Origin: Dehalococcoidia bacterium
GTDB taxonomy: Bacteria; Chloroflexota; Dehalococcoidia; UBA2979
DNA: 64,000 nt
Assembly (NCBI GenBank): GCA_965219085.1
Contig: OZ244720.1
Span: 2,368,001 to 2,432,000 of the forward strand
Direction: 5' to 3'
Under the pieces are notes generated by a model. The model searched no databases, was not told where the DNA came from, and saw only the letters and a list, made by a program, of their open reading frames with translations. Below are positions 7,827-50,412 of this stretch, in pieces. The stretch's first letter is position 1, and each line of letters opens with the position of its first letter. The position numbers were made by a program, and so were the translations under genes.

Positions 7827-10019
7827 GTGACCGATGCACTCGCCCGAATCAGCTCGCGTAGACCGTGGGTCACCATCGGGCTGTGGGTGGCCGCGGTCGT
7901 CATCGCCCTCGCTGTGAGCGGGCAGCTCCTCGAGAGCGCGACCACGACCGAGCTGCGACTGTCCCGCGGCTTCGAGTCGGAGGACACGAGGCTGCTGCTG
8001 GAGCGGCGGTTCCCGAGCACCCAGCAGGTCCAGGAAGTCGTGATCGTCCAGTCGGACTCGCTGACCGTGGACGACCCGGCCTTCCGCGAGCAGGTCAGCG
8101 AGGTCTTCGCCGCCATGAGCGGGCTGGGCGAAGACATCGTGGCCGGCGGGGTGCACTACTTCCTGCTGCCCGACGAGCGCCTCGTGTCCGCCGATCGCAA
8201 GACCACGATCATCCCGTTGGCGATGACCGGGTCGCTGGCCGAGGCCGAACGCAACGTCGAGCACGTCTTCGACACCATCGACGAGGTGAACACCACCGAC
8301 GAGTTCCGCGTGCTGATCGTGGGCGCCGCGAGCATCTCCTACGAAAACAACGAGTTCGCGCTGCGGGACCTGGAGCAGGGAGAACGGTTCGGGGTCCCCG
8401 TCGCGCTCCTCATCCTGCTCGTGCTCTTCGGGGCCGTGGTGGCGGCTCTGGTGCCCATCGGCCTGGCGATCGTGGCGATCATCATCGCGCTGGGCCTGGT
8501 CGCGATCATCGGGCAGGTCTACGAGCTGGTGTTCTTTGTCACCCTGATGATCACGATGATCGGACTGGCGGTCGGCATCGACTACTCGCTGATCATGATC
8601 TCTCGCTTCCGCGACGAGATGGGCCGAGGCCTGTCCGTCGCAGAGGCCGTCGAGCGCACGGGCGCCACAGCCGGGCGCACGGTGCTGTTCAGCGGCGTGA
8701 CCGTGGTGATCGCGCTGTTCGGGCTGTTCATCGTGCCGATGGCGTTCTTCCGCTCGCTCGGGCTTGGGGCGGTGCTCGTGGTGATCGTCGAGTTGGTGGC
8801 GACGCTGACGCTGTTGCCGGCCGTGCTCATGCTCCTCGGCCCCAACGTGAACCGGCTGTCGCTCCCGTTCATCGGGAAGGGCCGCACACGAGGTTCGCGG
8901 CAAGGCGCCGCGTCTGGCGGCGGGTTCTGGGACTTCACGACGCGACTCGTCATCCGGTTCCCGGTGATCGGGCTCCTCGCCGTCGGCATCCCGATGGTGG
9001 CCGTGACCTCGTTCTACTTCGACATCCGCACGGGCCTGAACGGCGTGGACACCTTCCCGGAGGGCTCGAGGACGCGGGAAGCCTTCCTCGCACTCGAGGC
9101 CGACCCCACGCTCTCGTTCGGCGTCGCCAACCCGGTCGAGATCGCCATCGACGGCGATCCGGAAGACCCGCGGGTGCAGGCCGCGGTTGAGCGCCTGATC
9201 GTGTCGCTCGCGCCGATCTCTCCGGCGACGCCGCTGATCGACGTGAATCCCGAAGGCGACCTCGCGCTGATGCGCGTCGTACTCCCCGGTGAGCCGAGCA
9301 GCCCCGCCACGGTGGAGGCGGTCAACACCATTCGCGACGAACTTGTACCTGCCGCGTTCGCCGGTACTCCCGCCACGGCCATGGTGGGGGGCCTCAGCTC
9401 CGAGGCGAGCGACGTGTTCTCGATCATCGACCGCTACACGCCGATCGTGTTCGCGTTCGTGCTGGGCTTCAGCTTCATCGTGCTGATGCTGGTGTTCCGC
9501 TCGATCGTGATCCCGGTCAAGGCCGTGTTCATGAACCTGCTCTCGGTGGGCGCGGCGTACGGGATCCTCGTGCTCGTGTTCCAGAAGGGCGTGGCGAGGG
9601 AGTTACTGGGCTTCCAGCAAGCCGAAGTGATCGACGTGTGGATCCCGATCTTCCTGTTCACGATCCTGTTTGGGCTCTCCATGGACTACCACGTCTTCCT
9701 GCTCAGCCGCGTGCGCGAGCGCTACGACGCGACGGGCGACAACGCCGAGGCGGTGGCCTACGGGCTGCGCGAGACGGCGGGCATGATCACCGGGGCCGCG
9801 CTGATCATGGTCGCGGTCTTCGGCGCGTTCGCGTCCGGGCAGACGATCATCAACCAGCAGGTGGGGTTCGGACTCGCCCTCGCGGTGTTCCTCGACGCGA
9901 CGCTGGTGCGGTCGGTGCTCGTGCCGGCGAGCATGGAGCTGCTGGGCAGCCGTAACTGGTACCTGCCGTCGTGGCTGGAGTGGCTGCCCGATCTGCGCGT
10001 CGAGCCGGTCGAGTCATAG
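7827..10019 (+). CDS. MMPL/RND family transporter
   Basis: [10 protein letters not shown] and [18 protein letters not shown] repeats; C-terminal [12 protein letters not shown]. Confidence 0.92.
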
Positions 10020-16872: not shown

Positions 16873-17760
16873 TCAGTTCGCCGGGCTCTGTGCGATCGTT
16901 CCGAGGCGCGGAGTTGCCGCTTCGGGCTCTTCGAGCGGTTCCGGCTCGGCGGCCGGGGGTTGCTCGCCCGTCTGCCCGAGCACCTCGAGCCGGGCGCGCT
17001 CGTCGTCGAGGGGCGGCATCGCGAAATCGTCGATGACGTCCTCCTCTGGCGGCGAGAGGTTCGGGCCGGGCTCGGCGCGCGCCTCGGGATCCTCGGCGCG
17101 AGCGAAGTGGATCGGCCCGGCGCCGCCTACGCCCGTGTCCCCGTTCGAACGTTGCTCGGCCTCGTTGAGCGAGCGTGGCGCCGCGCCCGCGTCCGCGAGG
17201 AGCGCGTCCATCTGGTCGGCCGTGACAGTGGGACGCATGGCCTCCTCGGGAGGGGCCCCCGCGAGCTGTTCGAGCCCGGACTGCACGGAGCGCTGGAACG
17301 AGCCGAGCTGGTGGTCCAGCTTCGAGAGCAGGTGGCGCGCGTACTCGTCCGCGGCCGCCATCTGCTGCCGGGCCACGAGGCGCGACTCCTCGATCCGGCC
17401 CGCCATCTCGGCGTTGGCCCCGGCATCGCGCTCTTCGGCGCGCGCGTCGGCCTCCGCGACGATCTTCGCGGCGTGCTCGCGCGCCGCGCGCGTGAGCTTG
17501 TGGTCGTCGATGAGCGCGGCGGCCTGCTCCTCGGCGCGCGCGAGCATGAGCCGCGCCTCCTCCCCGGTATTGCGGCGGATGGCGTCCATCTCGGCCACGA
17601 TCTCGCGCGCCTCGCGCACCTCGGCGGGAATGGCGACCCGGAGCTGGTCGATCGTGTCGAGCAGCTCGCGGCGGTCGACGACCGCGCGGTTGCCGATGGG
17701 CATGCGCTGCGCGCCCGCCACCTGCTCCTCGAGACGGTCGATGAGGTAGAGCAGATCCAT
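16873..17760 (-). CDS. DivIVA/SepIVA-like coiled-coil protein with acidic disordered tail
   Basis: MDLLYLIDRLEE...VVDRRELLDTIDQLRVAIPAEVREA coiled coil, ADEYA motif; conserved position after rsmD-coaD. Confidence 0.7.
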   Translation of the reverse strand: MDLLYLIDRLEEQVAGAQRMPIGNRAVVDRRELLDTIDQLRVAIPAEVREAREIVAEMDAIRRNTGEEARLMLARAEEQAAALIDDHKLTRAAREHAAKIVAEADARAEERDAGANAEMAGRIEESRLVARQQMAAADEYARHLLSKLDHQLGSFQRSVQSGLEQLAGAPPEEAMRPTVTADQMDALLADAGAAPRSLNEAEQRSNGDTGVGGAGPIHFARAEDPEARAEPGPNLSPPEEDVIDDFAMPPLDDERARLEVLGQTGEQPPAAEPEPLEEPEAATPRLGTIAQSPAN

Positions 17761-18833: not shown

Positions 18834-20924
18834 CTACCCCTGATCGTTTCCGGCCGGCCCCGGCGGTCCCGTCGGCGTCGGCTCGGGCGTTGGTTCTGGG
18901 GTAGGCTCGGGCGTCGGCTCCGGGGTTGGTTCCGGCGTCGGCTCAGGGGTCGGCTCGGGCGTTGGCTCCGGGGTGGGCTCGGGTGTCGGCTCAGGGGTGG
19001 GCTCGGGCGTCGGCTCCGGTGTTGCCTCGGGAGTGGGCTCGGGGGTCGGCTCGGGCGTCGGTTCCGGAGTGGGCTCAGGGGTCGCCTCGGGAGTCGGTTC
19101 CGGGGTCGCCGCGGCCTCTGATGTCGTGTCGTCCAAGGGTTCAGGTGTCGGCGTCGGCTCAGGGGTCGGCTCGGGCGTCGGTTCCGGCGTAGGTTCCGGC
19201 GTCGGACTCGTGGGAGCCGCGGCCGTGGGTTCGGGGTCGGCCACGCGCTGCGCGATCTGCTGGCCGACGAACACCACGCCGTCCGAGACGATCAGCGTCA
19301 CGTCGTACGTGCCGGCGCGCTGCGGCGCCCGCCACGCAACCAGGCCGCCAGTCCCCTCGATCTGGCCGCCGGACGCCGCCCACTTCGGGCGCAGGTACGG
19401 TCCGTGGGGCAGCAGCAGGTGCACTGCGTCGTCCTCGACGTAGTTGAGCACCACGTCCCACAGGTCGGGCAGCCCCGGGTCGGTCTGCGCCGCGCTGATC
19501 ACGACACCGCCGAGGCCGTAGCGGCTGGCGAGGTCGAGCCGGAACGCGGCCGAGTAGCGATTCTCGATCCAGACCGTGCGCGGGCCGCCGCGCGCCTCGT
19601 AGGCGAAGGTCACGACGCGTGCCCCGTTGTCCCAGTAGAGGCCGCTGTTGCCGGCGTCGCGGTCGAGGTTGACTGCGGCAACGGACACCACCTCGCCGGG
19701 TCCGATGGTCTCCGCCGCGCGGCTCTCCACCGTGCTCGCGAACGACAGCGCTTCGTGCAGCGTCAGCGAGCGCACGCCCTCGGCGGAGCGCTCCCGCGAG
19801 CGGCGGTCGAGCACGAGCGAGACGCGCCCGAGGTCCGTGCCGGCCGCCCGCTGCGCGCTGAGCGCTACCCCGACCTGGTCGTAGAAGAGGGTGCGGTTGG
19901 TCGGCGGCATCAGCCACACCTCGGTGGCCGCGGTGAGCGCATCCCAGTCGTAAGCGCCGAAGTCCGTGCCCGACGGCGTCGGCACGGTGACGACGAGGCC
20001 AAGGCCGCGCTCCTCGGCGCGCTCGGCGAGGGTGGCGACGAAGTCGCTGAACGCCTGGCGGCGCGCGCTGTCGAGCGCGAGGTACTCGATGTGGAGGCCG
20101 TCGGCCGCGGCATCCTCCGCGGCTGTGATGAGCGCGTCGGCGTGGTCTTCGGCGATGTCGGGGATCGTGAAGATCGCGTCGATGGTGGCTGCGTCGGAGG
20201 GCTCGGCGAGGTAGACGCCCAGGTAGACGTCCGCGCGGGTCGTGGCGCCCCGGGCGACGGTGAGCGCGCCGTCCGGGACATCGACGCCTCCCAGGGCTTC
20301 GCCGCCGGAGGGTGTCGCCGCGCGCACGCTGATGATGCCGGCGGCTGAGAGCGCCCCCACGTCGGGGGCCTCGCCCGGCTCGACGATGAGCGCCAGCGAT
20401 CGCGCGAACGTCGTGCGCGCCAGCACGGCGATGTTGGCCGGTACCTGGTCGACCTGCCCCTGCGCGGCGTTCCCGTCGTCGGTCAGCGCGATCGAGGCCA
20501 GGCGCGCCCAGTCGCCGTCCTCGTAGGTGTAGAACGCGAGGTGCTCGCTGCTGTCGGCCTGTTCGCTGAGCCGCACCGTGAGTGCGGCGGAGCCGGTGAA
20601 CTCGCCGTCGGTGGAGATGTCGTACAGCGCGCTGCGCGCGGTGAGGCCGGACGGCAGCGGCGGCAGATCGTCGCGGGCCTTCGTGCTGATGGAGGGCATC
20701 GAGTCGCCGTCGTCGCCGCGGTCGAGCAGCGAGATCGGGGGCAGCAAGAGCGCGGCAAGGATGATCCCGAGGACGGCGATGACGCCGACCACGCGCAGCA
20801 GGCCGCGGTCGCTCTCACCCTCGTAGCCGTCGTAGGGGTCGTATCCAAACTCGTCGTCGTCGCCGTCGAGGGGCTCGAACGGTTCGGAACCCGGGCGTGG
20901 GGACAGGGGATCCTGGTCCGACAT
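18834..20924 (-). CDS. membrane-anchored GH18-like TIM-barrel protein with Ig/PKD-like module and EPTP repeat tail
   Basis: N-terminal TM; ADGLHIEY, GAYDW and TVWIEN..S...RLDLA.RYGLGG motifs typical of YdhD/SleL-like GH18; GTYDVTLIVSDG beta-sandwich. Confidence 0.65.
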   Translation of the reverse strand: MSDQDPLSPRPGSEPFEPLDGDDDEFGYDPYDGYEGESDRGLLRVVGVIAVLGIILAALLLPPISLLDRGDDGDSMPSISTKARDDLPPLPSGLTARSALYDISTDGEFTGSAALTVRLSEQADSSEHLAFYTYEDGDWARLASIALTDDGNAAQGQVDQVPANIAVLARTTFARSLALIVEPGEAPDVGALSAAGIISVRAATPSGGEALGGVDVPDGALTVARGATTRADVYLGVYLAEPSDAATIDAIFTIPDIAEDHADALITAAEDAAADGLHIEYLALDSARRQAFSDFVATLAERAEERGLGLVVTVPTPSGTDFGAYDWDALTAATEVWLMPPTNRTLFYDQVGVALSAQRAAGTDLGRVSLVLDRRSRERSAEGVRSLTLHEALSFASTVESRAAETIGPGEVVSVAAVNLDRDAGNSGLYWDNGARVVTFAYEARGGPRTVWIENRYSAAFRLDLASRYGLGGVVISAAQTDPGLPDLWDVVLNYVEDDAVHLLLPHGPYLRPKWAASGGQIEGTGGLVAWRAPQRAGTYDVTLIVSDGVVFVGQQIAQRVADPEPTAAAPTSPTPEPTPEPTPEPTPEPTPTPEPLDDTTSEAAATPEPTPEATPEPTPEPTPEPTPEPTPEATPEPTPEPTPEPTPEPTPEPTPEPTPEPTPEPTPEPTPEPTPEPTPEPTPTGPPGPAGNDQG
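18872..19205 (-). repeat. 12-bp tandem repeat encoding (EPTP)n
   Basis: Many degenerate copies of GAGCCGACGCCC-type units in two blocks; synonymous variation at third codon positions. Confidence 0.9.
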
Positions 20925-22375: not shown

Positions 22376-22849
22376 GTGATGGAAGAGCACGTACTCGTCA
22401 CACGCGAAGGCATCGAAAAGCTCAAGCAGGAGTTGACCGTGCTGCGCACCAACGGCCGCGCCGAGGTGGCCGCGGCCATCCACGAGGCGCAGGAACTCGG
22501 CACCGCCCAGATCGACGGCCAATACGAAGACGCCAAGAACCGCCAGGCGTTCCTCGAGGGCCGCATCCTCGAGATCGAGAACATGCTCGAACGAGCCGAG
22601 GTGATCGACGAGGAGGCGGCGCACCGCTCGCGCGAGGTGCGCATCGGCTCGACAGTGACGGTGAAGATGCCGAGCGGCGCCGAGCAGGACTTCCAGCTCG
22701 TCGGCCCCGCCGAGGCGAATCCCTCCGAGGGCCGCATCAGCCACGAGTCGCCGGTGGGCCGGGCGTTGCTCGGCAAGAGGCGGAATGACAAAGTGGACGT
22801 AAGCACGCCCGGCGGCAACGCCACCATGACCGTCGTTTCCGTCCGCTAG
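22376..22849 (+). CDS. greA: GreA-family transcription elongation factor (atypical tip)
   Basis: VTREG..KLKQEL, AKNRQAFLEGRI, GRISHESPVGRALLG; canonical position upstream of lysS. Confidence 0.9.
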   Translation: MMEEHVLVTREGIEKLKQELTVLRTNGRAEVAAAIHEAQELGTAQIDGQYEDAKNRQAFLEGRILEIENMLERAEVIDEEAAHRSREVRIGSTVTVKMPSGAEQDFQLVGPAEANPSEGRISHESPVGRALLGKRRNDKVDVSTPGGNATMTVVSVR

Positions 22850-27749: not shown

Positions 27750-28325
27750 GTGACGAGCGACGCCAGTACCACCGGCACCGCGGACGACGCGCTGAGCGCG
27801 CGCCCGACGAGGCTCGTGCGGCTGCTCTGGGACGCCTTCGACGAACTCGAACGCGTCGCCGGGGCGCTGCCGACGCCCGGCCAGGGCCGTGCGATCGGGC
27901 GGCTCAACGCCGGCAGCTGGATCGTCGCGCACGTGGCGCAGCAGCAGGACGCGTACTGGTGCACCGGCGCGCAGGGTCTCGAGCCCGACGCGTGGCTCGC
28001 AGGCCTCGAGGTCGGCTTCGGCTCGGAGCCCTCGGTGCCGGACTACCGCGAGGCACTCGACGCGTTCGCACATATCCGCGCCCGCGCGATCCCGTACCTG
28101 CGCACGCTCCGCGACGAGGACCTCGACGCGGTCACGGAGGCCTCGGACGGGTCGGGGCGCGCGCAGACGGTGGGCGACCTGCTGGTGCGCGCCGTCGCGC
28201 ACGTCTTCGTGCACACGGGCGAGCTCGCGACGATCGCCTCGCTCGTCGGAGCGCCTGACCTCGGGGCGCCTGGTCGGCTCACGCACTCGACAGCGCCACC
28301 GCCTGGCGCGGCGGGCAACGAATAG
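27750..28325 (+). CDS. DinB/YfiT-like four-helix metalloprotein
   Basis: SWIVAHVA and HVFVHTGE (H...HxxxH metal triad). Confidence 0.75.
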   Translation: MTSDASTTGTADDALSARPTRLVRLLWDAFDELERVAGALPTPGQGRAIGRLNAGSWIVAHVAQQQDAYWCTGAQGLEPDAWLAGLEVGFGSEPSVPDYREALDAFAHIRARAIPYLRTLRDEDLDAVTEASDGSGRAQTVGDLLVRAVAHVFVHTGELATIASLVGAPDLGAPGRLTHSTAPPPGAAGNE

Positions 28326-28376: not shown

Positions 28377-29651
28377 CTAGACTTCCCGGACGAGCATCCC
28401 CGTGGGCTGGCGACGCCAACTGCGGAACTTCGCGTTCTTGATGCCGGCCGCCATCGCATAGTCGCGTGCGCGACGGATGAGGCCGGACGGCACGTAGATG
28501 TAGAGCGGCGCTTCGCCGTTCTCCAGGGGCGCCCACACCAGCTCTGCCTGCTGCCGCGTGACCGTCTCGCGGGTCTCGACCTGCGCGACGATGACCGGAC
28601 GGTTGCGCGGGTGCTCGACGACGACGATGTCGGGGAAGACCTGCGAGGTGGAGGCGCCGCCCGCCGTGAACTCCAGCGCCATCGTCGGCGTCGGCAGGTT
28701 CGTATACGTGCGGTACTCCGGGTGCGCCTCGTTCGGGTACTCGAAGCGGTCACGCGCGAGCTGGCGCACGACGACCTCGATCTCGAACTGGCGGGACTCC
28801 TCGCTGCGCCGCCACGGGGTACCCGCCTCGCGCCAGTCCATGACCGCGCGCTCGTGCTTGGCCGCGAACAGCCGCATGTCCTTGCCCTGCCCGTACAGGA
28901 ACAGCAGCAGAGCGAGCGGGGCGACGAGGATGGCGATCACGACGCCGAACGTGGAGGGACCGTCGACGCCCTCGAGGAGGAACTGGAGGTTCCCGACGTT
29001 GACGTCGCCGAAGCGGATGTTGTCGAGGACATCCCAGACCCCGGCGCCGCTGAAGGTCGGGCCCGGCGTGATGAAGATCGCCGCCAGCGAAACCATCAGC
29101 GCGATGAAGGCGACGAAGCTGACGGGCGACGGCAACTTGTACTGGTTCACGGCTGGGCCCGACATGTGCGGCGCCACGGCCTCGACCTGTCCGCCCCCGG
29201 CGGGAACGGGCGGGGGCGCTGCGGCGGCTGCCACCGCGGGAGCCTCCTCGGCGGGCTCGGCTTCGGCTTCGGCGGGCGCCTCAGCTTCAGCGGGGGCCTC
29301 GGCGGCCGCGGGCTCCGGCTCCGGCGCCGCCTCCTCGGCGGGCTCGGGCGCCGGCGGCGCGGCTGCGGGCGCTCCGCCGCCACCGACCTGCGAGCGGGCC
29401 GCCGTGGGGTCGTCGAACCACAGCTCGTTGATGGCGGTGAAGTGTGCCTGGTCGTCCGGCAGGTCGGGCTCGTCGAAGATCGCGTCGACGGGGCATGCGG
29501 GTTCGCACGCGCCGCAGTCGATGCAGGCCACCGGGTCGATGTAGAGCATCCGGTCTTCGCCTTCTTCGAAGTGGATGCAGTCGACCGGGCAGACCTCGAC
29601 GCAGGACTGGTCCTGCACGTCGATGCACGGTTGGGTGATGACGAACGTCAC
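28377..29651 (-). CDS. 7Fe ferredoxin fused to Pro/Ala/Glu linker, two TM helices and a PD-(D/E)xK-like C-terminal domain
   Basis: FdxA-type C-x7-C-x3-CP...CxxCxxCxxxCP; TMs SFVAFIALMVSLAAIFI and FGVVIAILVAPLALLLFLY; FPDIVVV...VAQVET; RBS GGAGGGAG. Confidence 0.8.
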   Translation of the reverse strand: MTFVITQPCIDVQDQSCVEVCPVDCIHFEEGEDRMLYIDPVACIDCGACEPACPVDAIFDEPDLPDDQAHFTAINELWFDDPTAARSQVGGGGAPAAAPPAPEPAEEAAPEPEPAAAEAPAEAEAPAEAEAEPAEEAPAVAAAAAPPPVPAGGGQVEAVAPHMSGPAVNQYKLPSPVSFVAFIALMVSLAAIFITPGPTFSGAGVWDVLDNIRFGDVNVGNLQFLLEGVDGPSTFGVVIAILVAPLALLLFLYGQGKDMRLFAAKHERAVMDWREAGTPWRRSEESRQFEIEVVVRQLARDRFEYPNEAHPEYRTYTNLPTPTMALEFTAGGASTSQVFPDIVVVEHPRNRPVIVAQVETRETVTRQQAELVWAPLENGEAPLYIYVPSGLIRRARDYAMAAGIKNAKFRSWRRQPTGMLVREV

Positions 29652-29979
29652 GCGCTGCTCTCCCTCCAGTGAGGGGATGGCTCTCGCCTGCTTCGCGCGC
29701 AATCGTATCCGCGCGCTTCGCGAGCGTCTACGCCACCCGGGCTGCGATGTGCCTCGTCGTCGGTGAGGAGACGCCGCGAGGTGCTCGCGACGGCTCCCCG
29801 CCGGAGCCCGAATCCGTGTTTTCGTCTCCGCATCGGGCTCCTCGCCGGCCCCCGATGCGCCGATCGACGCGCCCGGCCGGGCGATTGCGCAGGCCCCCCA
29901 CTACAGGTCGAGGGCTACAGGTGGTAGAACATGTGCGACCGCGCTCGCGGGAGCGCGGTACTACGGGAGGCACGCTGCA

Positions 29980-30537
29980 GTGACATTCGTCATCACCCAA
30001 CCCTGCATCGAGGTCCGCGATCAGTCCTGTGTCGAGGTGTGTCCCGTCGACTGCATCCACTTCGAAGAAGGCGAAGACCGGATGCTCTACATCGAGCCCG
30101 TCGTCTGCATCGACTGCGGCGCGTGCGAGCCCGCATGCCCGGTCAGCGCCATCTACGACGAGGCTGACGTACCCGATGACCAGGCGTTCTTCACGGAGCT
30201 CAACGTGCTCTGGTACACCGAGCCCGGTACCGTCCGCGCGCAGGTCGCCGACATCCCCGCCCTCGAGGGCGCCGAGGAGGCACGCGCCGCCGCGGAGGCG
30301 CGCGCGGCCGCGGAGGCCGCGGTGGCGGAGGCCGAGGCCGCAGCCGCCGATGAGCCCTCGCGCGGGCTCTACAAGTACGGCGAGGGCGGTGGTATCGAGG
30401 GCAAGTGCGTGCTCTGCGGCCAGTACGTCACCAAGGGCGGCGTCATGTTCCGCGCCAAGTCCGTCGCCTGCGCCGACTGCGCTGCCAGGGCCGAGCGCAT
30501 CCGCGACCCGTACCGCCAGGTCGCCGGTCGCCGCTAG
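29980..30537 (+). CDS. 7Fe ferredoxin fused to Ala/Glu helical linker and CxxC-x17-CxxC zinc ribbon
   Basis: Same FdxA-type Cys pattern; KCVLCG...ACADC; RBS GGGAGG. Confidence 0.85.
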   Translation: MTFVITQPCIEVRDQSCVEVCPVDCIHFEEGEDRMLYIEPVVCIDCGACEPACPVSAIYDEADVPDDQAFFTELNVLWYTEPGTVRAQVADIPALEGAEEARAAAEARAAAEAAVAEAEAAAADEPSRGLYKYGEGGGIEGKCVLCGQYVTKGGVMFRAKSVACADCAARAERIRDPYRQVAGRR

Positions 30538-41952: not shown

Positions 41953-43179
41953 CTAGCTGCGAGGCAGCCCGAGGCCGCGCGTGGCGATGATGTTGCGCTG
42001 GATCTCGCTGCTGCCGCCGGCGATCGTCATCGGGATCGCGTCGACGTAGCCGTGCGTGAAGCGCGCCCGCATCGGCGCCAGCTCGGCCTCCGGGTCCCAG
42101 AGGTTGGCGTAGAGCCCGAAGACGCGGGTGCCGGTACGCTGCAGCTTCTGCATCGTCTCGGTGCCGAACATCTTCACCATCGAGGACTCGTAGTTCGGGA
42201 TCAGGCCCGCGCCCTGCATCGAGGCGACGCGCAGCGAGAGGTTCGCCGCGACCTCGGTGGCGACCCACGCGTCAGCCAGGTCGCCGCGCACGGTCGGGAT
42301 CTCGAGCCGGTGGCGGCCCGCGCCCTCGTCGGTCTTGACGTACGCCATCAGCCGCTCCATCGACTCGCGGTCGTTGACCGCGCTGTCGACCGAGGAGCGC
42401 TCGTAGTCGAGCAGGGTCATGCCGACGTACCAGCCGCGGTTTTCCTCGCCCACGACGTTCTGGGCGGGGACGCGCACGTCCTCGAAGAAGGTCTCGTTGA
42501 AGATGTGCTTCCACGACATGCTGATCAGCGGCCGCACCGTCAGGCCCGGCGAGTGGATGTCGTCGAACAGCAGGAACGAGATGCCGCGGTGCTTCGGTGC
42601 GTCCGGGTCGGTGCGCACGAGCGCGAACAGCTTGTCCGCGAACTGCGCGCCGGAGGTCCAGATCTTCTGGCCGTTGACGACGAACTCGTCGCCGTCGCGC
42701 ATGGCGCGGGTCTGCAGGCCGGCGAGGTCGGAGCCGGCGCCCGGCTCGGAGTAGCCCTGCGCCCACGACACCTCACCGGAGAGGATGCCCGGCAGGTACG
42801 ACGCCTTCTGCTCATCGGTGCCATGCACGATCAGCGTCGGGCCGAGCAGCGAGACGCCACCGCCACCGACGGACGGGGCCGCGGCCTTCGCCAGCTCCTC
42901 CTTGAAGATGTACTGCTCCCACGTGCTCAGGCCCGCGCCGCCGTACTCCTTGGGCCAGTGCGGAGCGACCCAGCCGCGGTCGGCGAGGGCGCGCGACCAG
43001 TCCTGGGCGGCGTTGCGGCGCGTGGGGTCGTCCGACTTGCGGTCGGCCGACCAGCCCTCCTCGAACATCGCGCCGCCCTTGGCGGCGACTTCCTGGTAGT
43101 GGGGCGGGAGGCCGTCACGGATGACTGCCTGCACCTCGGCGCGGAAGGCGGCTTGCTCTGTGCTGTCTGCCCAGTCCAT
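41953..43179 (-). CDS. acyl-CoA dehydrogenase
   Basis: QGYSEPGAGSDL, NGQKIWTS, IAGGSSEIQRNIIA. Confidence 0.93.
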   Translation of the reverse strand: MDWADSTEQAAFRAEVQAVIRDGLPPHYQEVAAKGGAMFEEGWSADRKSDDPTRRNAAQDWSRALADRGWVAPHWPKEYGGAGLSTWEQYIFKEELAKAAAPSVGGGGVSLLGPTLIVHGTDEQKASYLPGILSGEVSWAQGYSEPGAGSDLAGLQTRAMRDGDEFVVNGQKIWTSGAQFADKLFALVRTDPDAPKHRGISFLLFDDIHSPGLTVRPLISMSWKHIFNETFFEDVRVPAQNVVGEENRGWYVGMTLLDYERSSVDSAVNDRESMERLMAYVKTDEGAGRHRLEIPTVRGDLADAWVATEVAANLSLRVASMQGAGLIPNYESSMVKMFGTETMQKLQRTGTRVFGLYANLWDPEAELAPMRARFTHGYVDAIPMTIAGGSSEIQRNIIATRGLGLPRS

Positions 43180-43246
43180 CGTTCTTCCTCGGTTTCTCAT
43201 CAGCGTCCCGGCGATCCGGCCGGGACGCGCCCTATTCTACGTGTTA

Positions 43247-43402
43247 CGTCGCGCCTCGTGGGCGCGGCCTAGTCGGTGCCGCCCGCGGCGCGCAACTCCG
43301 CGATCTCCTCGTCGTTGTATGCGGTCCGCCGTCGCGCCTCGTGGGCGCGGCCTAGTCGGTGCCGCCCGCGGCGCGCAACTCCGCGATCTCCTCGTCGTTG
43401 TA
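43247..43402. repeat. 73-bp perfect direct repeat separated by 10 nt
   Basis: 43247-43319 is identical to 43330-43402; covers the CoA-transferase 3' end. Confidence 0.9.
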
Positions 43403-44628
43403 GCCGTGCTCGCGCAGGATCTCGTCCGTGTGCCGAGGGTCGGCGAGGGCATGTTGGAGCCCGTCGGCGTCTTCGACATCTGGACGATCGGCCCGACCAT
43501 GCGCTCCGGCCCCGTCAGCTCGTGGTCCAGGTCCACCATGTAGCCCATGGCCTCGACCTGCGGGTCGTCCGCCATCTCCTCGGGGTGGTTGACCTTCGAG
43601 GCCGGCGCGCCGACGGTGTCGAACGCCGCGATCCACTCGTCCATCGTCTTCGTGAGCATGACGTTGCGGACGCGCTCCAGCATCTCCTCGGCGACGGCGT
43701 TGTTCGCGGGGTCGAGCGCGTTGAACTCGGGGTCGGCGGTCGGGTCGTCCTCGACGCCGAGCGCGCGCCGGAACTGGTCGCGGTTGGCCGGCGTCAGCGC
43801 GCCGAGGATGACGGCGCCGTCCTTGACGCTGTAGCCGCCGTAGTAGAGCCGGAAGGCCTTGCCCAGCATGTCGAATATGCTGCCCTTGGCGGCGAGCTGC
43901 TCCTGGTAGCTGGCGCCGGCCTCACGCGCGTCGCTCAGGCGCGCCATGGCGGGGTCGGTCACCATCGCGTCGAACACCGGCAGCTGGCTCACGGAGCCGC
44001 TGGCGAGGTTGAGCCCCGCCGCGAGCAACGAGCTCGCGATGTGCTGCCCCTCGCCGGTGCGCTCCCGGTGGAAGAGCGCCGCCACCACGCCGAGCGCCGC
44101 TCCCAGCCCGGCGTGGTAGTCGCCCGGCGCCGTCGCGGTGATCATCTCCGGCGCGCCGTACTCGTCGACCTTGCCGTCGGCCGCCATCAACCCGCTGTAC
44201 GCCTGCGCGATGATGTCCGAACCGGAGCGCGCCGCGCCCGGCCCCCGGTCGCCGTAGCCGCTGTTCTCGATGTAGACGAGGTCCGGACGGTATTGCGTGA
44301 GCGTGTCGTAGTCGACGTTTAGCCGCTGCGGCACGCCCGGCCGCGAGTTGATCAGGAACACGTCGAAGTCCGCGATGAGGCGGTGGACGGCGGCCTGGCC
44401 GGCCGCGTTGCCGAGGTCCAGCACCAGGCTGCGCTTGCCGCGGTTGAGCGTGTGGTAGGCCTTGCTCTCGCCTGGCACGAACTCGCCCAGCACCCGTAGG
44501 CCCTCGCCCCCCGGCGGCTCGCACTTCACCACGTCGGCGCCGAGGTCCGCGAGCGTCTGGCCGGCGTACGGCCCGGCCACGATCTGCGATACCTCGAACA
44601 CCTTGACCCCCGCGAGCGGTCCCGGCAT
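43352..44628 (-). CDS. CaiB/BaiF class III CoA-transferase, frameshifted near the 3' end
   Basis: PLAGVKV, LADLGADVVK, NRGKRS; conserved tail HTDEILREHGY...LRAAG* lies in a different frame after ~43432. Confidence 0.85.
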
Positions 44629-44823
44629 GCCACACCTCGATTCTTCGGGCGTTCGTTGTCCCGAAGGATGTATAGCCCGGATTGATCCGCGCGTGAAGGG
44701 CTGCGGGTCGTTCCCGGGGCCGGGTGACCCTGGTTTCTCTCGACGGGATGCGCCGATGCGCTATGTCGTTCGCTATATTGCAGGTGGCAGGACGGATACG
44801 CCTGCCGCACAGAGGGGGAAGCG

Positions 44824-46077
44824 ATGACGAAGGCGGTAAACAACCTCCGGGGCAAGTACGCGGTCGTCGGCGTCGGCGAGACCGAGTTCTCGCGCAACTC
44901 GGGACGCACGACGCGGCGCATGGGCGTCGAGGCGATCCGCAACGCGGTCCACGACTCGGGGCTGGACTGGGACTCCACCAGCTGGGGGATGATGGCGTAC
45001 GGCAGTAACGACCGCGCCTTCTCGGACCAGATCGCGCAGGACCTCGGCATCCAGCTCGACTACCACGTCGACATCTTCGGCGGCGGCAACTCCACCGAGA
45101 CGATGATCGGTGCGGCGATTGGCGCGCTCGAGGGGGGCCTCGCTGACGCGTTCATCCTCTACCGCACCATGAATGGCTACACCGAGGCGCGCATCGGCGG
45201 CACGCCCGTCGGCGAGGCGCCTCCGCCGATGTTCCCGACGGTGCACGCCAACAGCATGATCCACCAGGGCATCTACGGCGTGGGCAGTGCGCTGCAGATG
45301 TTCGGGCTCTCGTTCGTGCGCCACATGTGGGAGTACGGCACGACGCTCGAGCAGCTCGCGCACGTCAAGGTGGCGCACAGCATCGGCGCGTCGAACAACC
45401 CGAAGGCCTACTACAAGACCCGCTACACGGTGGACGACGTGCTCAACAGCCGCCTCATCGTGTGGCCGTTCGGGCTGCTGCACTGCTGCGTCGAGACCGA
45501 CAACGCCACGGCGATCGTCATCACCGACATCGAGCGGGCGCGATCGCTGCAACATGCGCCGGCGACGATCCTCGGCACGGCCGGACGCACTCACAAGTAC
45601 GGGCCGGAGTACCACTGGGGCTACGGGCCGATCAACCGCCACGCGGGCATCTTCGGCCGCGAGATCCTGTGGCCGAACTCCGGGGTGCAGCCGCAAGAGG
45701 TCGACATCACCGGGTCGTACGACGCGTTCACGTTCACCGCGCTCTTCCAGCTGGAGGCCTACGGCTTCTGCGACTTCGGGGAGGGTGGCGACTACGTCTC
45801 GAACGGCACGATCGAGCTCGGCGGCGCAAGACCCAACAACCCGTCGGGCGGCCACCTCTGCGAGGGCTATACGCACGGCATGAACATGGTCGTCGAGAAC
45901 GTGCGCCAGCTGCGCGGCACCGTCGACGACTACTGCCCGAACTGGGCGGACGGCGAGCACTCTCACGACTACAGCGAGGGGCATTGCCGCCAGGTCGAGA
46001 ACGCGCAGATCACGGCCAACCTCGGCTGGGGCATGCCGTCGCAGGGCTCCGCGCTCGTGATGACCAACCAGGTCTAG
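44824..46077 (+). CDS. SCP-x thiolase-like protein (Ltp2-type)
   Basis: VVGVGET, CCVETDNA, YDAFT, NPSGGHLCEGYTHG, VRQLRG. Confidence 0.85.
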   Translation: MTKAVNNLRGKYAVVGVGETEFSRNSGRTTRRMGVEAIRNAVHDSGLDWDSTSWGMMAYGSNDRAFSDQIAQDLGIQLDYHVDIFGGGNSTETMIGAAIGALEGGLADAFILYRTMNGYTEARIGGTPVGEAPPPMFPTVHANSMIHQGIYGVGSALQMFGLSFVRHMWEYGTTLEQLAHVKVAHSIGASNNPKAYYKTRYTVDDVLNSRLIVWPFGLLHCCVETDNATAIVITDIERARSLQHAPATILGTAGRTHKYGPEYHWGYGPINRHAGIFGREILWPNSGVQPQEVDITGSYDAFTFTALFQLEAYGFCDFGEGGDYVSNGTIELGGARPNNPSGGHLCEGYTHGMNMVVENVRQLRGTVDDYCPNWADGEHSHDYSEGHCRQVENAQITANLGWGMPSQGSALVMTNQV

Positions 46078-46123
46078 CGAGCCTCGAAGCGAACACCGCG
46101 CGAAGGAGAGACGGAGACCAACG

Positions 46124-46633
46124 ATGGCTTCATACCTGGGCGCCGGCGTATTCGTGCCGGAGAACGACCAGCCACACCGCGAGTACCTGGAGATGCAGGC
46201 GACGGGCCAGCTCCACGTGCAGAAGTGCTCGGATTGCGGGCACCTGCGCTACCCGGTGATGACCGCCTGCCCCGACTGCCGCTCGCTCGACTCGGAGTGG
46301 GAGGCGCTGTCGGGCAAGGGCGCGATCTACTCGTACTACATGGTGCCGCACCCGATTAACCCGGCATTCCGCGAGTTCGTGCCGTATATCGTCGCGCTCA
46401 TCGAGCTCGACGAGGCGCGCGAGGAGTACGGCGCGGGGCGAGCGCTGCGGCTGATCGGCAACGTGGTCACGGCGGACGGTAGCTCCGAGGACCTCAACAA
46501 CATCGCGATCGGCAAGCGCGTGCAGGTCACGATGGTGGACCTCGGCGACGGCTGGGCGCTGCCGCAGTGGCAGCTCTCGGACGAGCCGCCGGAGCACGAG
46601 CCCTGGCAAGCGCCGGGGCCGGCGTTCCCGTAG
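46124..46633 (+). CDS. DUF35 Zn-ribbon/OB-fold protein
   Basis: QKCSDCG...CPDC, GAIYSY, PYIVALIELDE. Confidence 0.88.
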   Translation: MASYLGAGVFVPENDQPHREYLEMQATGQLHVQKCSDCGHLRYPVMTACPDCRSLDSEWEALSGKGAIYSYYMVPHPINPAFREFVPYIVALIELDEAREEYGAGRALRLIGNVVTADGSSEDLNNIAIGKRVQVTMVDLGDGWALPQWQLSDEPPEHEPWQAPGPAFP

Positions 46634-46645
46634 GCCGGGGCATCG

Positions 46646-46694
46646 GCAACACAGCAACGGCCCACCGTCACGGTGGGCCGTTTGCCTGTGTTGC
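46646..46694 (+). terminator. intrinsic terminator / long hairpin
   Basis: AACGGCCCACCG-TCA-CGGTGGGCCGTT, extended by GCAACACAG/CTGTGTTGC. Confidence 0.65.
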
Positions 46695-46703
46695 GCCGGG
46701 GGC

Positions 46704-47867
46704 CTACTTGTCGGCCGACGGGAGCGTTGCAATCTGTCGCACAATACCTTCAACGCGACCGGTGAGGGCCTCGATATTCTGCGCGACGTCATCGGGCGCC
46801 ACCCACCGTGCGATAACGCCCTTGCTGGGCGCGTCGTGCGACCACGAGTCACCCTCGAACAACCCCGCGTACCGAAGCAGAGCATCCCGGAGTGCCCGCG
46901 GGGGCGGCGGGTCGTCGTAGCCTTCAAAGATGTTGCCGCCGAAGGAGAAGTCGCGTCTGCCCCCAAAGCCGGTTGCGCCTGGAGCGTATATCCATGCGAC
47001 GGTCACACGGTATTTCCAGGCCGGGCAGGGTACCCGGACGCTCACACGATTCGGACCCCAGTTGAACACTGCTCCGGCCGCAGTGGCGCGGTCGAGGAGT
47101 TGTCGCGTCGCTTCGCGGATCCGACCCTCCGGGAACTCAGCAAGCAGCGTCTCTCTCGTGTGCCGCGAGCGGGCGGCCGCCGAGCGCGACCGATCTGAAC
47201 GTCCGGCGACGCGCGGGACGAGAGTCCTGACCCCTTCCCCACGAAACTGTTTGAGCTCCACAGCGAGCACCTCGACGCGGGGGCCCATGTGGCGATTCAG
47301 GAACTCGACGACATGCTCCAGGTCCGGCGGGATGCGGTCGGCCACGAAGAGCAACCGGATGCGCTCGTCTGCGAGGTTCCGGTCGACACGCTCCCAGAAC
47401 TCCTCGTAGGCACCATCGCCCGACTCGCCGCTGCTTTGAAGCCGCGCAATGCGGTCGCGGGCGGCGTCCTCGCCGCCTGACTCGGCTTCGAGGCGCTCGC
47501 GGATGGTGTCGGCGGTCCAGTACAGCGTCGCGTGCGCGGCGTAGTCGAGCATCTGGCCCACGACGCGGCGCCTGATCTCCGAGTTGTCGCCGCGTTTCAC
47601 CTCGACCAGCGTCGGGCGCGCGTCCTGATCCAGCAGCAGGTGGTCGACAGCCCAGCGGTCGCCGGAATCCGGGCTGTCGGGGATGCCCATCTCGCGGCTG
47701 ATCAGCAACCACCGTCGAGGCTCCTCGGGCGTCATGCGCTCGCCGGCGAGCACCTCGGGGTGCTCCGCGATCAGCTCCTGGAGCGCTGCCTCGTCGTCGT
47801 AATCGGCTTCGGTCAGGGGTGTCGGGTCGCCCCCTGCGTCGAGCCGCCAGATGCGCTCCTTCGTCAT
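46704..47867 (-). CDS. PD-(D/E)xK nuclease-fold protein (NucS/DUF91-like N-terminal domain)
   Basis: EAALQELI, DHLLLDQDARPTLVEVKR, VVGQMLDYA. Confidence 0.7.
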   Translation of the reverse strand: MTKERIWRLDAGGDPTPLTEADYDDEAALQELIAEHPEVLAGERMTPEEPRRWLLISREMGIPDSPDSGDRWAVDHLLLDQDARPTLVEVKRGDNSEIRRRVVGQMLDYAAHATLYWTADTIRERLEAESGGEDAARDRIARLQSSGESGDGAYEEFWERVDRNLADERIRLLFVADRIPPDLEHVVEFLNRHMGPRVEVLAVELKQFRGEGVRTLVPRVAGRSDRSRSAAARSRHTRETLLAEFPEGRIREATRQLLDRATAAGAVFNWGPNRVSVRVPCPAWKYRVTVAWIYAPGATGFGGRRDFSFGGNIFEGYDDPPPPRALRDALLRYAGLFEGDSWSHDAPSKGVIARWVAPDDVAQNIEALTGRVEGIVRQIATLPSADK

Positions 47868-47886
47868 GACGCCCCGCCGCTGACGG

Positions 47887-49032
47887 CTACAGCCGCCCGG
47901 CGTCGAACTCGAGGATGCCGCGCGCGACGTTGATGCGGAGCAGGTCCGAGGCGCCCTCGCCCAGTCGCATCGCGCGCACGCGCCGGTAGAGCTGCTCCAG
48001 CGGGTGCCCCACGATCAGCGCCTGCCCGCCGGCGAGTTGGACCGCCGTGTCCACGTGGCGGCCGACGGCCTCCGCGGCGAACATCTTCGTGGCCGCGATC
48101 TCGTTGATCGCGTCGTCGCCAGACTCGCGCAGCCGCGCGCTGCGGTACAGCATGCTGCGCGCCGCGTACGTCTCGATGCGCATGTCGGCGTAGCGCAGCC
48201 GCACGCCCTCGCGCTCGCCGAGCGGCGTGCCGCTGCGGTGGGGCGCCTTGAGGTGGTTCGTCGTGAACTCCGTGGTCCACATCGACAGGCCCGTGCACTC
48301 GGCGGCCACGCCGAGGCGCATGTCGTTGATGTTCCCGAGCGCGCGAGGCATCCCCTCGCCGATCGCGCCGATCACGTTCGCCACGGGCACGCGTGCCTGG
48401 TCGAACGACAGCGAGACGTGCCCGCCTCCGTCCATCGAGACGAAGGAGTGGTCGATCGAGACACCCGGCGTGCCGGCCTCAATGACGAGCATCGCGGTGC
48501 CGCCGGGGCCCGCGTCGCCGTCCTCGACGTTGATGAGCGCCGAGTAGAAGTTGGCCGTCGCGCCGCCGCTGACGTAGGCCTTGCGGCCGGTGACGAGCAG
48601 GTCGTCGCCGTCGCGGATGGCCCACGTCGGCTTGAGCGCGTCGCCGGGCTCCGTGAAGGCGAACGAGCCCTGCGCGGCGCCGCGGAGCAGCGGCTCGAGG
48701 AAGCGCGCGCGCGCCTCACCCTCGGCGGTGCGCAGCACGCCCGGGCCCGGCCCGAAGATGGCGCGTCCGAGGCGCAGGTTGCCGGACGCGACGGTCTCGC
48801 GCGCGACGGTCAATTCGAGCGGCCCGGCGTTCGTGCCGCCGAACTCGGCGGGCTGGGTCATGCCGAACAGGCCCGCGGCCTGCGACCGCTCGCGCGCCTG
48901 CGCGGCGATCTCCGGAGGGATGGGCGCTTCGAGGTCGCCGGGCAGGTCGGCTTCGAGCGCGCTCAGGTCGTCGACGACCGCCTGCGTGCGGTCGCGGAGC
49001 TCGATCAGTTCGGGGGTCAGGGATTCGGGCAT
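47887..49032 (-). CDS. acyl-CoA dehydrogenase
   Basis: FAFTEPG, GRKAYVS, RLGEGASD. Confidence 0.9.
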   Translation of the reverse strand: MPESLTPELIELRDRTQAVVDDLSALEADLPGDLEAPIPPEIAAQARERSQAAGLFGMTQPAEFGGTNAGPLELTVARETVASGNLRLGRAIFGPGPGVLRTAEGEARARFLEPLLRGAAQGSFAFTEPGDALKPTWAIRDGDDLLVTGRKAYVSGGATANFYSALINVEDGDAGPGGTAMLVIEAGTPGVSIDHSFVSMDGGGHVSLSFDQARVPVANVIGAIGEGMPRALGNINDMRLGVAAECTGLSMWTTEFTTNHLKAPHRSGTPLGEREGVRLRYADMRIETYAARSMLYRSARLRESGDDAINEIAATKMFAAEAVGRHVDTAVQLAGGQALIVGHPLEQLYRRVRAMRLGEGASDLLRINVARGILEFDAGRL

Positions 49033-49185
49033 TGCGGGCACCTCCGTGCGTACGGCGCGCAGGCTATCAGTCGCGGGCCGCCGGGGCAGCCCATCGCCAC
49101 GATTCGGGGCGGCCGAGGGTTTGCCTCGGCGCGCCGTGAGGCGCATCATCGGCCCACTACACCGCATCGAAGCGAGGAGCTCTCC

Positions 49186-50412
49186 ATGAACTGGAACGAC
49201 GACGCCGAACAGGCGGCCTTCCGCAACCGGGTTACCACCTTCATCGAGGAGCGGCTGCCGGATCTCTACCGACGCCGCATCGAGACCGGCGAGGACGCCG
49301 CCCTCGAGGGCTTCTTCGCGTGGTACGCCGACCGGCAGAACCCGGACGAGGACGTACAGGCCGCCGCGCAGGAGTGGGCGGGCGCGCTCGCCGAGAACGG
49401 CTGGGTCGCCCCGCACTGGCCCGAGGAGTATGGGGGCGCCGGGCTCACGGCGATGGAGCAGGTGATCTTCAACGAGGAGATGGCCCGCGCCCAGGCGCCT
49501 GCGGTCGGCGGCTCCGGTGTCATGCTGCTCGGGCCCACCGTGCTGGTACACGGCACCCAGGAGCAGAAACAGAAGTACGTCGGCGACATCCTCTCCGGCA
49601 AGGTCGCGTGGGCGCAGGGCTACTCCGAGCCGGGCGCAGGCTCCGACCTCGGCGGGCTACAGACCCGCGCCATGCGCGACGGCGACGAGTACGTCGTGAA
49701 CGGCCAGAAGATCTGGACCTCGGCGGCCCACATGGCGGATGCGATCTTCGCGCTCGTCCGCACCAACCCGGACGCGCCGAAGCACCGCGGCATCTCGTTC
49801 ATCATGATCGACAACATCCGCCAGCCCGGCATCAACGTCCGGCCACTGATCGACGCGGCCTGGGGCCACGTCATCAACGAGGTCTTCTTCGAGGATGTCC
49901 GGGTCCCGGTCGCTAACGTGCTGGGCGAGGAGAACCGCGGCTGGTACGTCGGCATGACGCTGCTCGACTTCGAGCGCTCCGGCATCGCCGGCCCCGTTGA
50001 CCAGCAGCTACAGCTGACCGAACTCCTCGACGCCGTCGTGAACGACGAGCGCTCGCTGCTGAGCCGCAGCGACTCGCTCCGCGACCGCATCGTGGACCGC
50101 TACATCTCGACCGAGATCTCGTACAACCTCTCGCTCCGTGTTGCCTCGATGCAGGCGGCGGGCCTCGTCCCGAACTACGAGGCCTCGATGGGCAAGATGT
50201 TCGCGAGCGAGCAGGGCCAGGAGCTGCACCGCGTGGGCGTGCGCGCCTTCGGCCTGCACTCGCAGATCTGGCCCGGCGACGGCCGCGAGGTCCTCAAGGG
50301 CGATCACATCCGCGGCTACATCCGCTCGATCCCGTCGACGATCGCCGGCGGTAGCTCCGAGGTGCAGCGCAACATCATCGCCACGCGCGGGCTGGGGCTG
50401 CCTCGCGGTTAG
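49186..50412 (+). CDS. acyl-CoA dehydrogenase (paralogue of 41953-43179)
   Basis: QGYSEPGAGSDL, NGQKIWTS, IAGGSSEVQRNIIATRGLGLPR; GAGGAG RBS. Confidence 0.93.
   Translation: MNWNDDAEQAAFRNRVTTFIEERLPDLYRRRIETGEDAALEGFFAWYADRQNPDEDVQAAAQEWAGALAENGWVAPHWPEEYGGAGLTAMEQVIFNEEMARAQAPAVGGSGVMLLGPTVLVHGTQEQKQKYVGDILSGKVAWAQGYSEPGAGSDLGGLQTRAMRDGDEYVVNGQKIWTSAAHMADAIFALVRTNPDAPKHRGISFIMIDNIRQPGINVRPLIDAAWGHVINEVFFEDVRVPVANVLGEENRGWYVGMTLLDFERSGIAGPVDQQLQLTELLDAVVNDERSLLSRSDSLRDRIVDRYISTEISYNLSLRVASMQAAGLVPNYEASMGKMFASEQGQELHRVGVRAFGLHSQIWPGDGREVLKGDHIRGYIRSIPSTIAGGSSEVQRNIIATRGLGLPRG

Follow-up and report, generated by a model that had tools for sequence, protein, structure and literature searches.

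A conserved fusion of an FdxA-type ferredoxin to a membrane hairpin and a predicted nuclease-fold domain in Chloroflexota

The window analysed here is a stretch of 64,000 nucleotides (nt) from a Dehalococcoidia bacterium of the Chloroflexota (contig OZ244720.1, positions 2,368,001 to 2,432,000). Its minus strand carries, at 28377–29651, a coding sequence (CDS) of 424 codons followed by a stop (28377–28379), with a GTG start at 29651. The encoded protein joins five parts: an N-terminal FdxA-type 7Fe ferredoxin, an acidic linker, two transmembrane (TM) helices, a WRRSEESR juxtamembrane motif and a 140-residue C-terminal domain for which a restriction-endonuclease fold is predicted. This fusion is conserved in Chloroflexota, and it is both real and old. 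By analogy, its mode of action is most likely that of electron carriers held at the membrane, such as cytochrome c_y and RnfB, and the nuclease-fold domain may have become a binding or docking module.

The ferredoxin fusion and its conservation

A homology search with residues 180–424 retrieved 85 clusters at E ≤ 0.001, with E-values down to 1e-151. Fer4-type Pfam domains were present in 72 of these, in fused proteins of 348–438 residues that named sources label 'ferredoxin family protein [Chloroflexi bacterium]', generic PreA or 'hypothetical'. Across 40 aligned sequences, 32 positions of the C-terminal part were invariant, and such homology goes beyond chance. In the ESM Atlas the sole close neighbour of the whole protein was a Chloroflexota cluster of 59 members, 364 residues in length, all with Fer4. 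Genomes were also scanned with ferredoxin-core patterns, which gave 80 loci, 79 of them ordinary FdxA-type genes. The C-terminal domain was found (tblastn) in only one of the 80, L004, from a Chloroflexota metagenome-assembled genome (MAG), where one uninterrupted open reading frame (ORF) of 365 residues is 43% identical to the window protein.

The preliminary description of this DNA had pointed to the risk that the ferredoxin and membrane parts are separate genes brought together by misassembly. On this account a misassembly, or a wrongly joined gene call, would have linked a ferredoxin gene with an unrelated gene for a membrane protein. What speaks for it is that 13 of the 85 clusters lack Fer4. 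Most of these are short proteins that begin inside the linker; P0012, P0028 and P0061 do so on long contigs, so a split or mis-called gene is possible in some genomes, and P0086 has a different N-terminus. Six shorter homologues from a search for short proteins look like fragments of the fused form, and a homologue search limited to proteins of 785–2240 residues returned none. Against an artefact, the 72 fused clusters come from many independent assemblies, the L004 ORF is intact, the window ORF is likewise uninterrupted, with a uniform G+C content at third codon positions (GC3) of 0.91, and the fused proteins form a monophyletic clade with invariant residues of its own. We regard an artefact as extremely improbable, and reject it for the family as a whole on the conserved fusion in the clusters and the L004 ORF.

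The longest minus-strand ORF spans 28377–29702 and encodes 441 residues when begun at TTG. The GTG start corresponds to the sequence MTFVIT, and 37 of 40 aligned relatives begin at this position; two have N-terminal extensions that reflect gene calling and one starts later. A purine-rich stretch resembling a Shine-Dalgarno sequence, GGAGGGAGAG, was read from the sequence, with its end 6 nt 5' of the GTG. The G+C content of the window is 67–75%. Around the gene, an Rfam scan gave no RNA family and a single sub-threshold microRNA model, while a scan for promoters and terminators gave no consensus sites and one terminator-like site within the CDS, which is at chance level.

The surroundings of the gene are shared with L004. 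The window order is greA, lysS, SRPBCC, HAD, NUDIX, serS, DinB_2 and then the convergent fusion gene, and L004 has the fusion gene, a convergent DinB-family gene, serS, NUDIX, a gene for a 163-residue protein, lysS and greA. The order greA-lysS-(SRPBCC)-NUDIX-serS-dinB, convergent with the fusion gene, is therefore common to the two. In both genomes the convergent 3' neighbour is a DinB-superfamily gene, at 27750–28325 (+) in the window with a gap of 51 nt and at 9141–9656 (−) in L004 with a gap of 42 nt. The fusion gene is old and vertically kept among housekeeping genes, and is probably monocistronic. No second copy of the C-terminal domain was found within the 64-kb window. PADLOC defence models matched neither the 424-residue protein nor its neighbour, and membership of a defence system was not found; a defence-system or toxin-antitoxin reading was dropped on the housekeeping context and the lack of a PADLOC match.

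The N-terminal domain has the cysteine spacing C9-x7-C17-x3-C21-P ... C43-x2-C46-x2-C49-x3-C53-P and a further cysteine, C25, making eight in total, and all eight are kept in 39–40 of 40 relatives. In the pattern C-x7-C-x3-C-P ... C-x2-C-x2-C-x3-C-P, three ligands serve a [3Fe-4S] cluster and four a [4Fe-4S] cluster. Judged by this spacing, the domain carries every FdxA-type ligand needed to hold one cluster of each kind. Pfam placed Fer4 (1.3e-9) and Fer4_7 over residues 16–58 and matched nothing downstream in the protein. The best NCBIfam model was FdxA_Actino (5.8e-31, 106.9 bits, residues 2–86), which is below its curated equivalog cut-off of 125 bits, and the sequence departs from this model past the ferredoxin core. 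Matches in the PDB were to 7Fe ferredoxins, with every cysteine aligned: 2v2k (3.8e-24), 1bc6 ('7-FE FERREDOXIN', 4.7e-23) and its companion 1bd6, 1h98, and the 106-residue series of Azotobacter-type ferredoxin I (1axq), together ranging from 3.8e-24 to 1e-16 over residues 2–79. In a profile search the similarity to solved 7Fe ferredoxins reached 5.3e-30. The net charge of the domain has a median of −14 in 40 relatives.

These results uphold the assignment of an FdxA-type 7Fe ferredoxin in the preliminary description, as well as its statement that such ferredoxins are usually small and standalone: in 77 of the 80 FdxA-type loci the ORF from the start of the match is no longer than 123 residues. 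The known FdxA-type proteins are soluble single domains of 77–107 residues, whereas the window protein has 424 residues and two TM helices and runs on for 336 residues past the ferredoxin through linker, hairpin and extra domain.

The linker is of low complexity. Residues 89–165 (77 in all) include 29 Ala, 17 Pro, 14 Glu and 8 Gly, and in 40 relatives the linker is 48–109 residues long, has a median charge of −12.5 and closes with a conserved QVEA motif, in which Q155 is kept in 37 of 40. The TM helices were called from 19-residue hydrophobicity windows over threshold and examined in an AlphaFold2 (AF2) model of residues 180–424, which had a predicted local distance difference test (pLDDT) of 87.9. 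Composition, hydrophobicity and modelled helices agree with the Pro/Ala/Glu linker and two TM helices that had been read from the sequence before. TM helix 1 is flanked by conserved PSP (174–175) and PGP (196–197) motifs. These motifs, Q255, W273-R274 and W280-RRSEESR-287 are kept in 37–40 of 40 relatives. The WRRSEESR motif (residues 280–287) lies mostly in the juxtamembrane segment, and its last four residues (284–287) open the C-terminal domain. The loop between the helices, residues 196–234, is presumably extracytoplasmic. The ferredoxin and the C-terminal domain are both predicted to be cytoplasmic, because of the charge distribution and because an Fe-S domain that lacks an export signal has to fold inside the cell; with two TM helices this agrees with the earlier placement of both on the same side.

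A divergent paralogue of 185 residues, consisting of an FdxA-type ferredoxin, an Ala/Glu linker and a CxxC...CxxC tail, lies on the opposite strand 328 nt upstream of the fusion gene, and is 79% identical to it over the first 89 residues. The 5' ends of the two genes form an inverted repeat (29274–29651 and 29980–30357; 378 nt, 74% complementary). In the paralogue a C-terminal zinc-ribbon-like tail, CxxC-x17-CxxC, replaces the membrane part. No ferredoxin paralogue stands beside the fusion gene of L004.

Another extended ferredoxin was seen among the scanned loci. L013, from a Poribacteria MAG, has at 8001–9287 (+) an ORF of 429 residues that starts with an FdxA-type ferredoxin (Pfam Fer4, 6.3e-7) and continues into a hydrophobic region; its C-terminal part is unrelated to that of the window protein and belongs to no Pfam family. 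This ORF may be an independent case of an extended, membrane-associated 7Fe ferredoxin.

The C-terminal domain, its altered motif and its family

The AF2 model of the C-terminal domain alone, built with 64 family sequences, had a pLDDT of 94.0 and a predicted TM-score (pTM) of 0.86. It consists of a helix (284–302), strands 313–317, 326–329, 335–338, 342–346 and 351–358, a helix (366–377), a strand (383–388), a helix (392–401) and strands 408–415 and 418–423, and contains the alpha-beta-beta-beta-alpha-beta core of the PD-(D/E)xK superfamily. In Foldseek searches of the PDB nearly all matches were restriction-endonuclease-fold proteins, and the longer model agreed. They included BstEII (9ibq; 1.8e-3, probability 0.97) and 3ijm (probability 0.98, TM-score 0.45/0.48), and also PaqCI, NucC, a 'putative restriction endonuclease domain' protein, YaeQ, Can2, Uma2-type proteins (6okh, 1wdj, 3dnx), PfoI, MunI, XisH and Hjc. 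Named matches in BFVD, with TM-scores up to 0.57, were a restriction endonuclease, an MmcB-like repair protein, exodeoxyribonuclease 8, YqaJ, endonuclease I and PD-(D/E)xK nucleases. Over both databases the matches are weak, with probabilities up to 0.98–1.00 and best TM-scores of about 0.45–0.57.

Sub-threshold Pfam hints in the 64 relatives were to restriction-endonuclease families only: BsuBI_PstI_RE in nine, HSDR_N_2 in seven and Uma2 in five, with a best E of 0.0012. Uma2 itself (DUF820, PF05685) gave no match for the window protein, and its five matches among the 64 relatives (best E 0.055) were under the cut-off. No Pfam or NCBIfam family covers the domain, and a PDB profile search with the domain family found no solved relative, its one match (E 0.22) being at chance level. 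Thus several independent weak signals agree in supporting the predicted fold class, and by sequence comparison the domain is without a close known relative. AF2 and Foldseek, the route proposed in the preliminary description, gave the restriction-endonuclease-like fold suspected there and not a non-nuclease fold.

The strings on which that suspicion was based are present: F339-PDIVVV, eight residues, IVAQVET (354–360), W373 and LYIYVP (383–388). P340-D341 stands directly before strand 342–346, and Q357-V-E359 at the end of the following strand. The domain therefore resembles the PD-(D/E)xK superfamily in its core alpha/beta fold, in the PD at a strand start and in the acidic motif on the next strand. 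The Asp at the start of the second core strand is present in 40 of 40 fused proteins and 62 of 64 family members. The (D/E)-x-K of the third core strand is absent, as QVE occurs there in 40 of 40 and the lysine is missing, and no curated member family is matched. Unlike (D/E)xK members, the window protein has PD...QxE (PD...ExE in its family), is membrane-anchored and is fused to a ferredoxin. BamHI carries ExE and BglII carries ExQ in place of ExK.

True homologues of residues ~285–420 form a family of about 140 residues in Chloroflexota, with the pattern HD...PD...EVET...W...YVP, that is unnamed in Pfam and NCBIfam. Conservation among its 64 sequences is highest at P340 (64), W373 (64), P388 (63), D341 (62) and N318 (62), which are common to 62–64 members including the window protein, followed by E359 (54), H291 (45), E357 (42) and D292 (33). 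The wider family motif is accordingly HD...PD...E-V-E and not PD...(D/E)xK. Most members are standalone and soluble, with the HD as well as the first Glu of EVE intact, both of which are lost in the ferredoxin-fused clade. A tree of 103 domains places the 40 fused ones in a single clade (support 1.0), in which Q357 and E359 are present in 40 of 40 and His291 in none. The HD and the first Glu are lost in CoxB-fused and other membrane-fused members too.

Within the fused clade D341, Q357, E359, E362, R366, Q368, W373, D397, Y398, R410 and W412 are invariant (40/40), E327 is kept in 38 and position 290 is acidic in 39. The suggestion that QVET may be non-catalytic gains from the change of the family Glu at 357 (42 of 64) to Gln in all 40 fused proteins and from the loss of the helix-1 His. 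The site appears to have been remodelled and then held fixed; because it stays invariant in the fused clade, a specific binding role or a non-canonical catalytic role would be favoured over that of a mere spacer. The net charge of the domain has a median of 0 and standalone forms have a median isoelectric point (pI) of 6.1, which is not a typical profile for a DNA binder.

An exhaustive search of 1.84 billion representatives with the domain gave 107 matches, 36 at E ≤ 1e-10 and seven at E ≤ 1e-30. A script classified 80 of them as proteins of at most 200 residues without TM helices (standalone forms along with some fragments), two as the ferredoxin-fused form, one as a CoxB fusion with a CuA motif, three as having TM helices N-terminal to the domain, three as having them C-terminal to it, and two as spurious low-complexity matches; 16 longer forms were left unclassified. 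Both the fused architecture in Chloroflexota and the standalone C-terminal homologues that the preliminary description had thought worth seeking were thus found. In the CoxB fusion, P0153, the nuclease-fold domain is at the cytoplasmic N-terminus and is followed by three TM helices and cytochrome c oxidase subunit II with the CuA motif (Pfam COX2 7.7e-16, TIGR02866 4.4e-44); P0157 is a shorter relative. In P0135, P0116, P0122, P0106 and P0128 the domain precedes a duplicated two-helix membrane module with a sub-threshold match to Cyt_c_ox_IV (actinobacterial oxidase subunit IV, E 0.007). P0109 has two N-terminal TM helices and the domain, and P0177, P0180 and P0190 have the domain and long Lys/Ala/Pro-rich tails. 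In the ESM Atlas the domain adjoins Chloroflexota clusters of about 140 residues (scores 0.96–0.97), one of them auto-named 'putative restriction endonuclease domain-containing protein'.

Two further observations concern this family. Many members (P0098, P0104, P0113, P0103, P0135, P0116 and P0153) have a Leu/Pro/Arg-rich segment resembling LLPPALRP past the domain; it could form an amphipathic helix for membrane binding or for interaction. The standalone homologues P0101 and P0108 gave weak PADLOC matches (E about 0.003) to positions 59–147 of the 1347-position model of DrmMI (DISARM), a hint that a related nuclease-fold module may be present at the DrmMI N-terminus.

Possible roles of the fused protein

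Rhodobacter cytochrome c_y is a membrane-anchored carrier with a long, flexible Ala/Pro-rich linker. In cytochrome c_y and in RnfB (9eri_B and 7zc6_B were among the Fer4 matches) a small redox domain is held at the membrane by a helix, as in the window protein. The cofactor differs from that of cytochrome c_y in being Fe-S and not heme c, and the side of the membrane in being, by prediction, cytoplasmic. In contrast to both carriers, the window protein is anchored by a hairpin midway along its chain, after which comes the extra nuclease-fold domain. No Rnf or other redox operon was found around the gene.

We tentatively favour, without giving it quite an even chance, a membrane-tethered ferredoxin whose nuclease-fold domain serves as a non-canonical binding or docking module. 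Swinging on its flexible acidic arm, the ferredoxin would trade electrons with partners on the cytoplasmic side of the membrane, as a ferredoxin counterpart of cytochrome c carriers that are anchored there. The role of the hairpin and of the nuclease-fold domain would be to keep the carrier in one spot, or to bind a partner or ligand at that site. The domain itself would be a derived, non-canonical member (PD...QxE, with the helix-1 His-Asp lost) of the HD...PD...ExE family, which might bind one particular partner or ligand on the surface of the membrane and so position or regulate the carrier; such specific binding is suggested because so many of its polar residues are invariant. Since oxidase subunit II and the duplicated two-helix module occur in fusions with homologous domains, the respiratory chain would be the most likely neighbourhood. 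The organism probably makes heme-A oxidases, since the window encodes, adjacent to one another at 1645–3772 (+) with an overlap of ~30 nt, a CcsA-type cytochrome c assembly gene (1.1e-33) and heme A synthase COX15/CtaA (4.5e-37).

A broader version of this proposal, which we regard as doubtful, is that in Chloroflexota and relatives the nuclease-fold family was recruited as a module of the cytoplasmic membrane face on the ferredoxin, on CoxB and on another small membrane protein, and that, by self-association or through a common partner or ligand, it wires or gates a low-potential ferredoxin into the respiratory chain.

Several points weigh against the docking proposal. None of the PDB fold matches reaches E ≤ 0.001, and their TM-scores are at most 0.48. 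The link to oxidases comes from few proteins, two CoxB-type and ~5 other membrane-type clusters of the 107 against 80 standalone. The Lys/Ala/Pro-rich tails of some relatives, like those of DNA-binding proteins, hint at nucleic-acid contact for the family, and the invariant D341, Q357, E359, E362, R366 and Q368 with the acidic position 290 fit a non-canonical metal or catalytic site that still works. The gene, being convergent with its conserved neighbour, has no operon partner to hint at function. A complex prediction for the ferredoxin (1–88) with the C-terminal part (270–424) scored 0.00, was run without controls and weighs neither way on their binding.

Best placed among the other explanations, although unlikely, is a non-catalytic DNA or RNA binder at the membrane, either a tether for nucleoid or transcripts or a redox- or iron-responsive regulator that senses through the ferredoxin. 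Nuclease-fold domains without catalytic residues often retain nucleic-acid binding, and a regulatory role has been proposed for the 7Fe ferredoxin I of Azotobacter. Both count towards such a role, as do the tails of P0177, P0180 and P0190 and the invariant arginines R274, R282, R287, R366 and R410. The near-zero charge of the domain and the slight acidity of its standalone homologues argue against it; moreover the acidic ferredoxin and linker would repel nucleic acid, and no DNA-binding family was matched in Pfam or NCBIfam.

We think it improbable, and somewhat more so, that the domain is a sensor of a small molecule or metal, in which a conserved pocket (D341, Q357, E359, E362, R366, Q368) reports its ligand to the hairpin or ferredoxin and makes a regulated electron valve. 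The polar residues of the former active site have stayed invariant (40/40) despite loss of the canonical motif, the hairpin and WRRSEESR are strongly conserved, and the ligand-controlled nuclease-fold proteins NucC and Can2 are among the fold matches, all of which would suit a sensor. No ligand-binding family was matched, and the gene has no genomic link to a signalling pathway.

The preliminary description had proposed a candidate redox-gated effector. In this reading the domain would be an active membrane-held nuclease of the PD-(D/E)xK type, with the redox state of the tethered ferredoxin as its switch. This ranks lowest of the functional alternatives and is judged improbable; from the sequence, redox-gated nuclease activity appears less likely than docking. 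The restriction-endonuclease-like fold, the PD at the canonical strand start, the invariant D341, E359 and E362 with the acidic residue at 290 (39/40), the ExE and ExQ sites of BamHI and BglII and the common membrane side of the two soluble domains are all compatible with it. Set against these are the replacement of the family E357 by Gln in 40 of 40 members of the clade, the lost helix-1 His-Asp and a domain that is not basic. There is neither a defence, mobile or toxin-antitoxin context nor a PADLOC match; the gene occurs as a single copy, two distant genomes share its synteny with housekeeping genes, and the literature search found no precedent. The near-neutral domain, the housekeeping context and the CoxB and other membrane fusions point more to a membrane or respiratory role than to a nuclease effector. 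As for the architecture itself, which had not been recognised as described, the listings and abstracts of the literature search contain no membrane-anchored 7Fe ferredoxin and no ferredoxin/nuclease-fold fusion.

Feature coordinates, other genes and implications

Table 1. Features of the fusion gene and its paralogue, in window coordinates (residue numbers are those of the 424-residue protein).
Feature	Position	Strand	Basis
Whole CDS, 424 residues	28377–29651	−	ORF list, translation, relatives' starts, GC3 0.91
Shine-Dalgarno-like purine-rich stretch (GGAGGGAGAG)	29652–29670	−	Sequence reading
FdxA-type 7Fe ferredoxin domain, residues 1–88	29388–29651	−	Pfam, NCBIfam, PDB, Cys conservation
Acidic Ala/Pro/Glu low-complexity linker, residues 89–170, variable length	29142–29387	−	Composition, 40 relatives
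TM helix 1, residues 177–195	29067–29123	−	Kyte-Doolittle 2.57; helix in AF2 model
Acidic loop, residues 196–234, 1 K/R and 5 D/E, variable in relatives	28950–29066	−	Sequence, alignment
TM helix 2, residues 235–253	28893–28949	−	Kyte-Doolittle 2.74; long helix in AF2 model
Basic juxtamembrane segment, residues 254–283	28803–28892	−	7 K/R within 259–290
Predicted restriction-endonuclease-fold domain, residues 284–424, order alpha-beta-beta-beta-beta-beta-alpha-beta-alpha-beta-beta	28380–28802	−	AF2, Foldseek
P340-D341 and Q357-V-E359, in place of the PD...(D/E)xK motif, here PD...QxE	28572–28634 (residues 340–360)	−	AF2 secondary structure, alignment
Divergent paralogue, 185 residues: FdxA-type ferredoxin, Ala/Glu linker, CxxC...CxxC tail	29980–30537	+	Pfam, NCBIfam

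Some other genes of the window deserve mention. Two belong to the GreA/GreB family, at 4671–5513 (−) and 22376–22846 (+), the first with an N-terminal extension of ~130 residues before its GreA domains. An ORF of 864 residues at 57784–60375 (−) has two tandem family-III CoA-transferase domains (1.2e-177, two stretches). Its region is rich in acyl-CoA dehydrogenase, thiolase-like and ChsH2-like genes (41956–50409), which suggests a cluster for lipid or steroid side-chain degradation. An integrase-core transposase ORF (rve, rve_3, HTH_21) at 63049–63870 (−) marks an insertion-sequence element near the window end. Five high-GC3 ORFs of 268–696 residues, all on the minus strand (18837–20924, 16876–17760, 46707–47867, 52426–53229 and 123–974), have no Pfam match at E ≤ 1e-5.

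The C-terminal domain defines a protein family that has neither a Pfam or NCBIfam model nor a solved relative. It offers an evolutionary series that leads from standalone HD...PD...ExE proteins to membrane-fused forms with altered sites, the oxidase subunit II fusions included, and raises the question of what purpose a nuclease fold serves when joined to membrane proteins of respiration. Should the doubtful proposal of a recruited membrane-face module be true, it would be a new way to organise or regulate electron flow, built from a former nuclease. The Chloroflexota form a large phylum, poorly represented in culture, whose members matter in soils, sediments and oceans. FdxA-type ferredoxins are treated as freely diffusing, and a conserved, single-copy tethered form would change models of electron flow at the cytoplasmic membrane of these bacteria.

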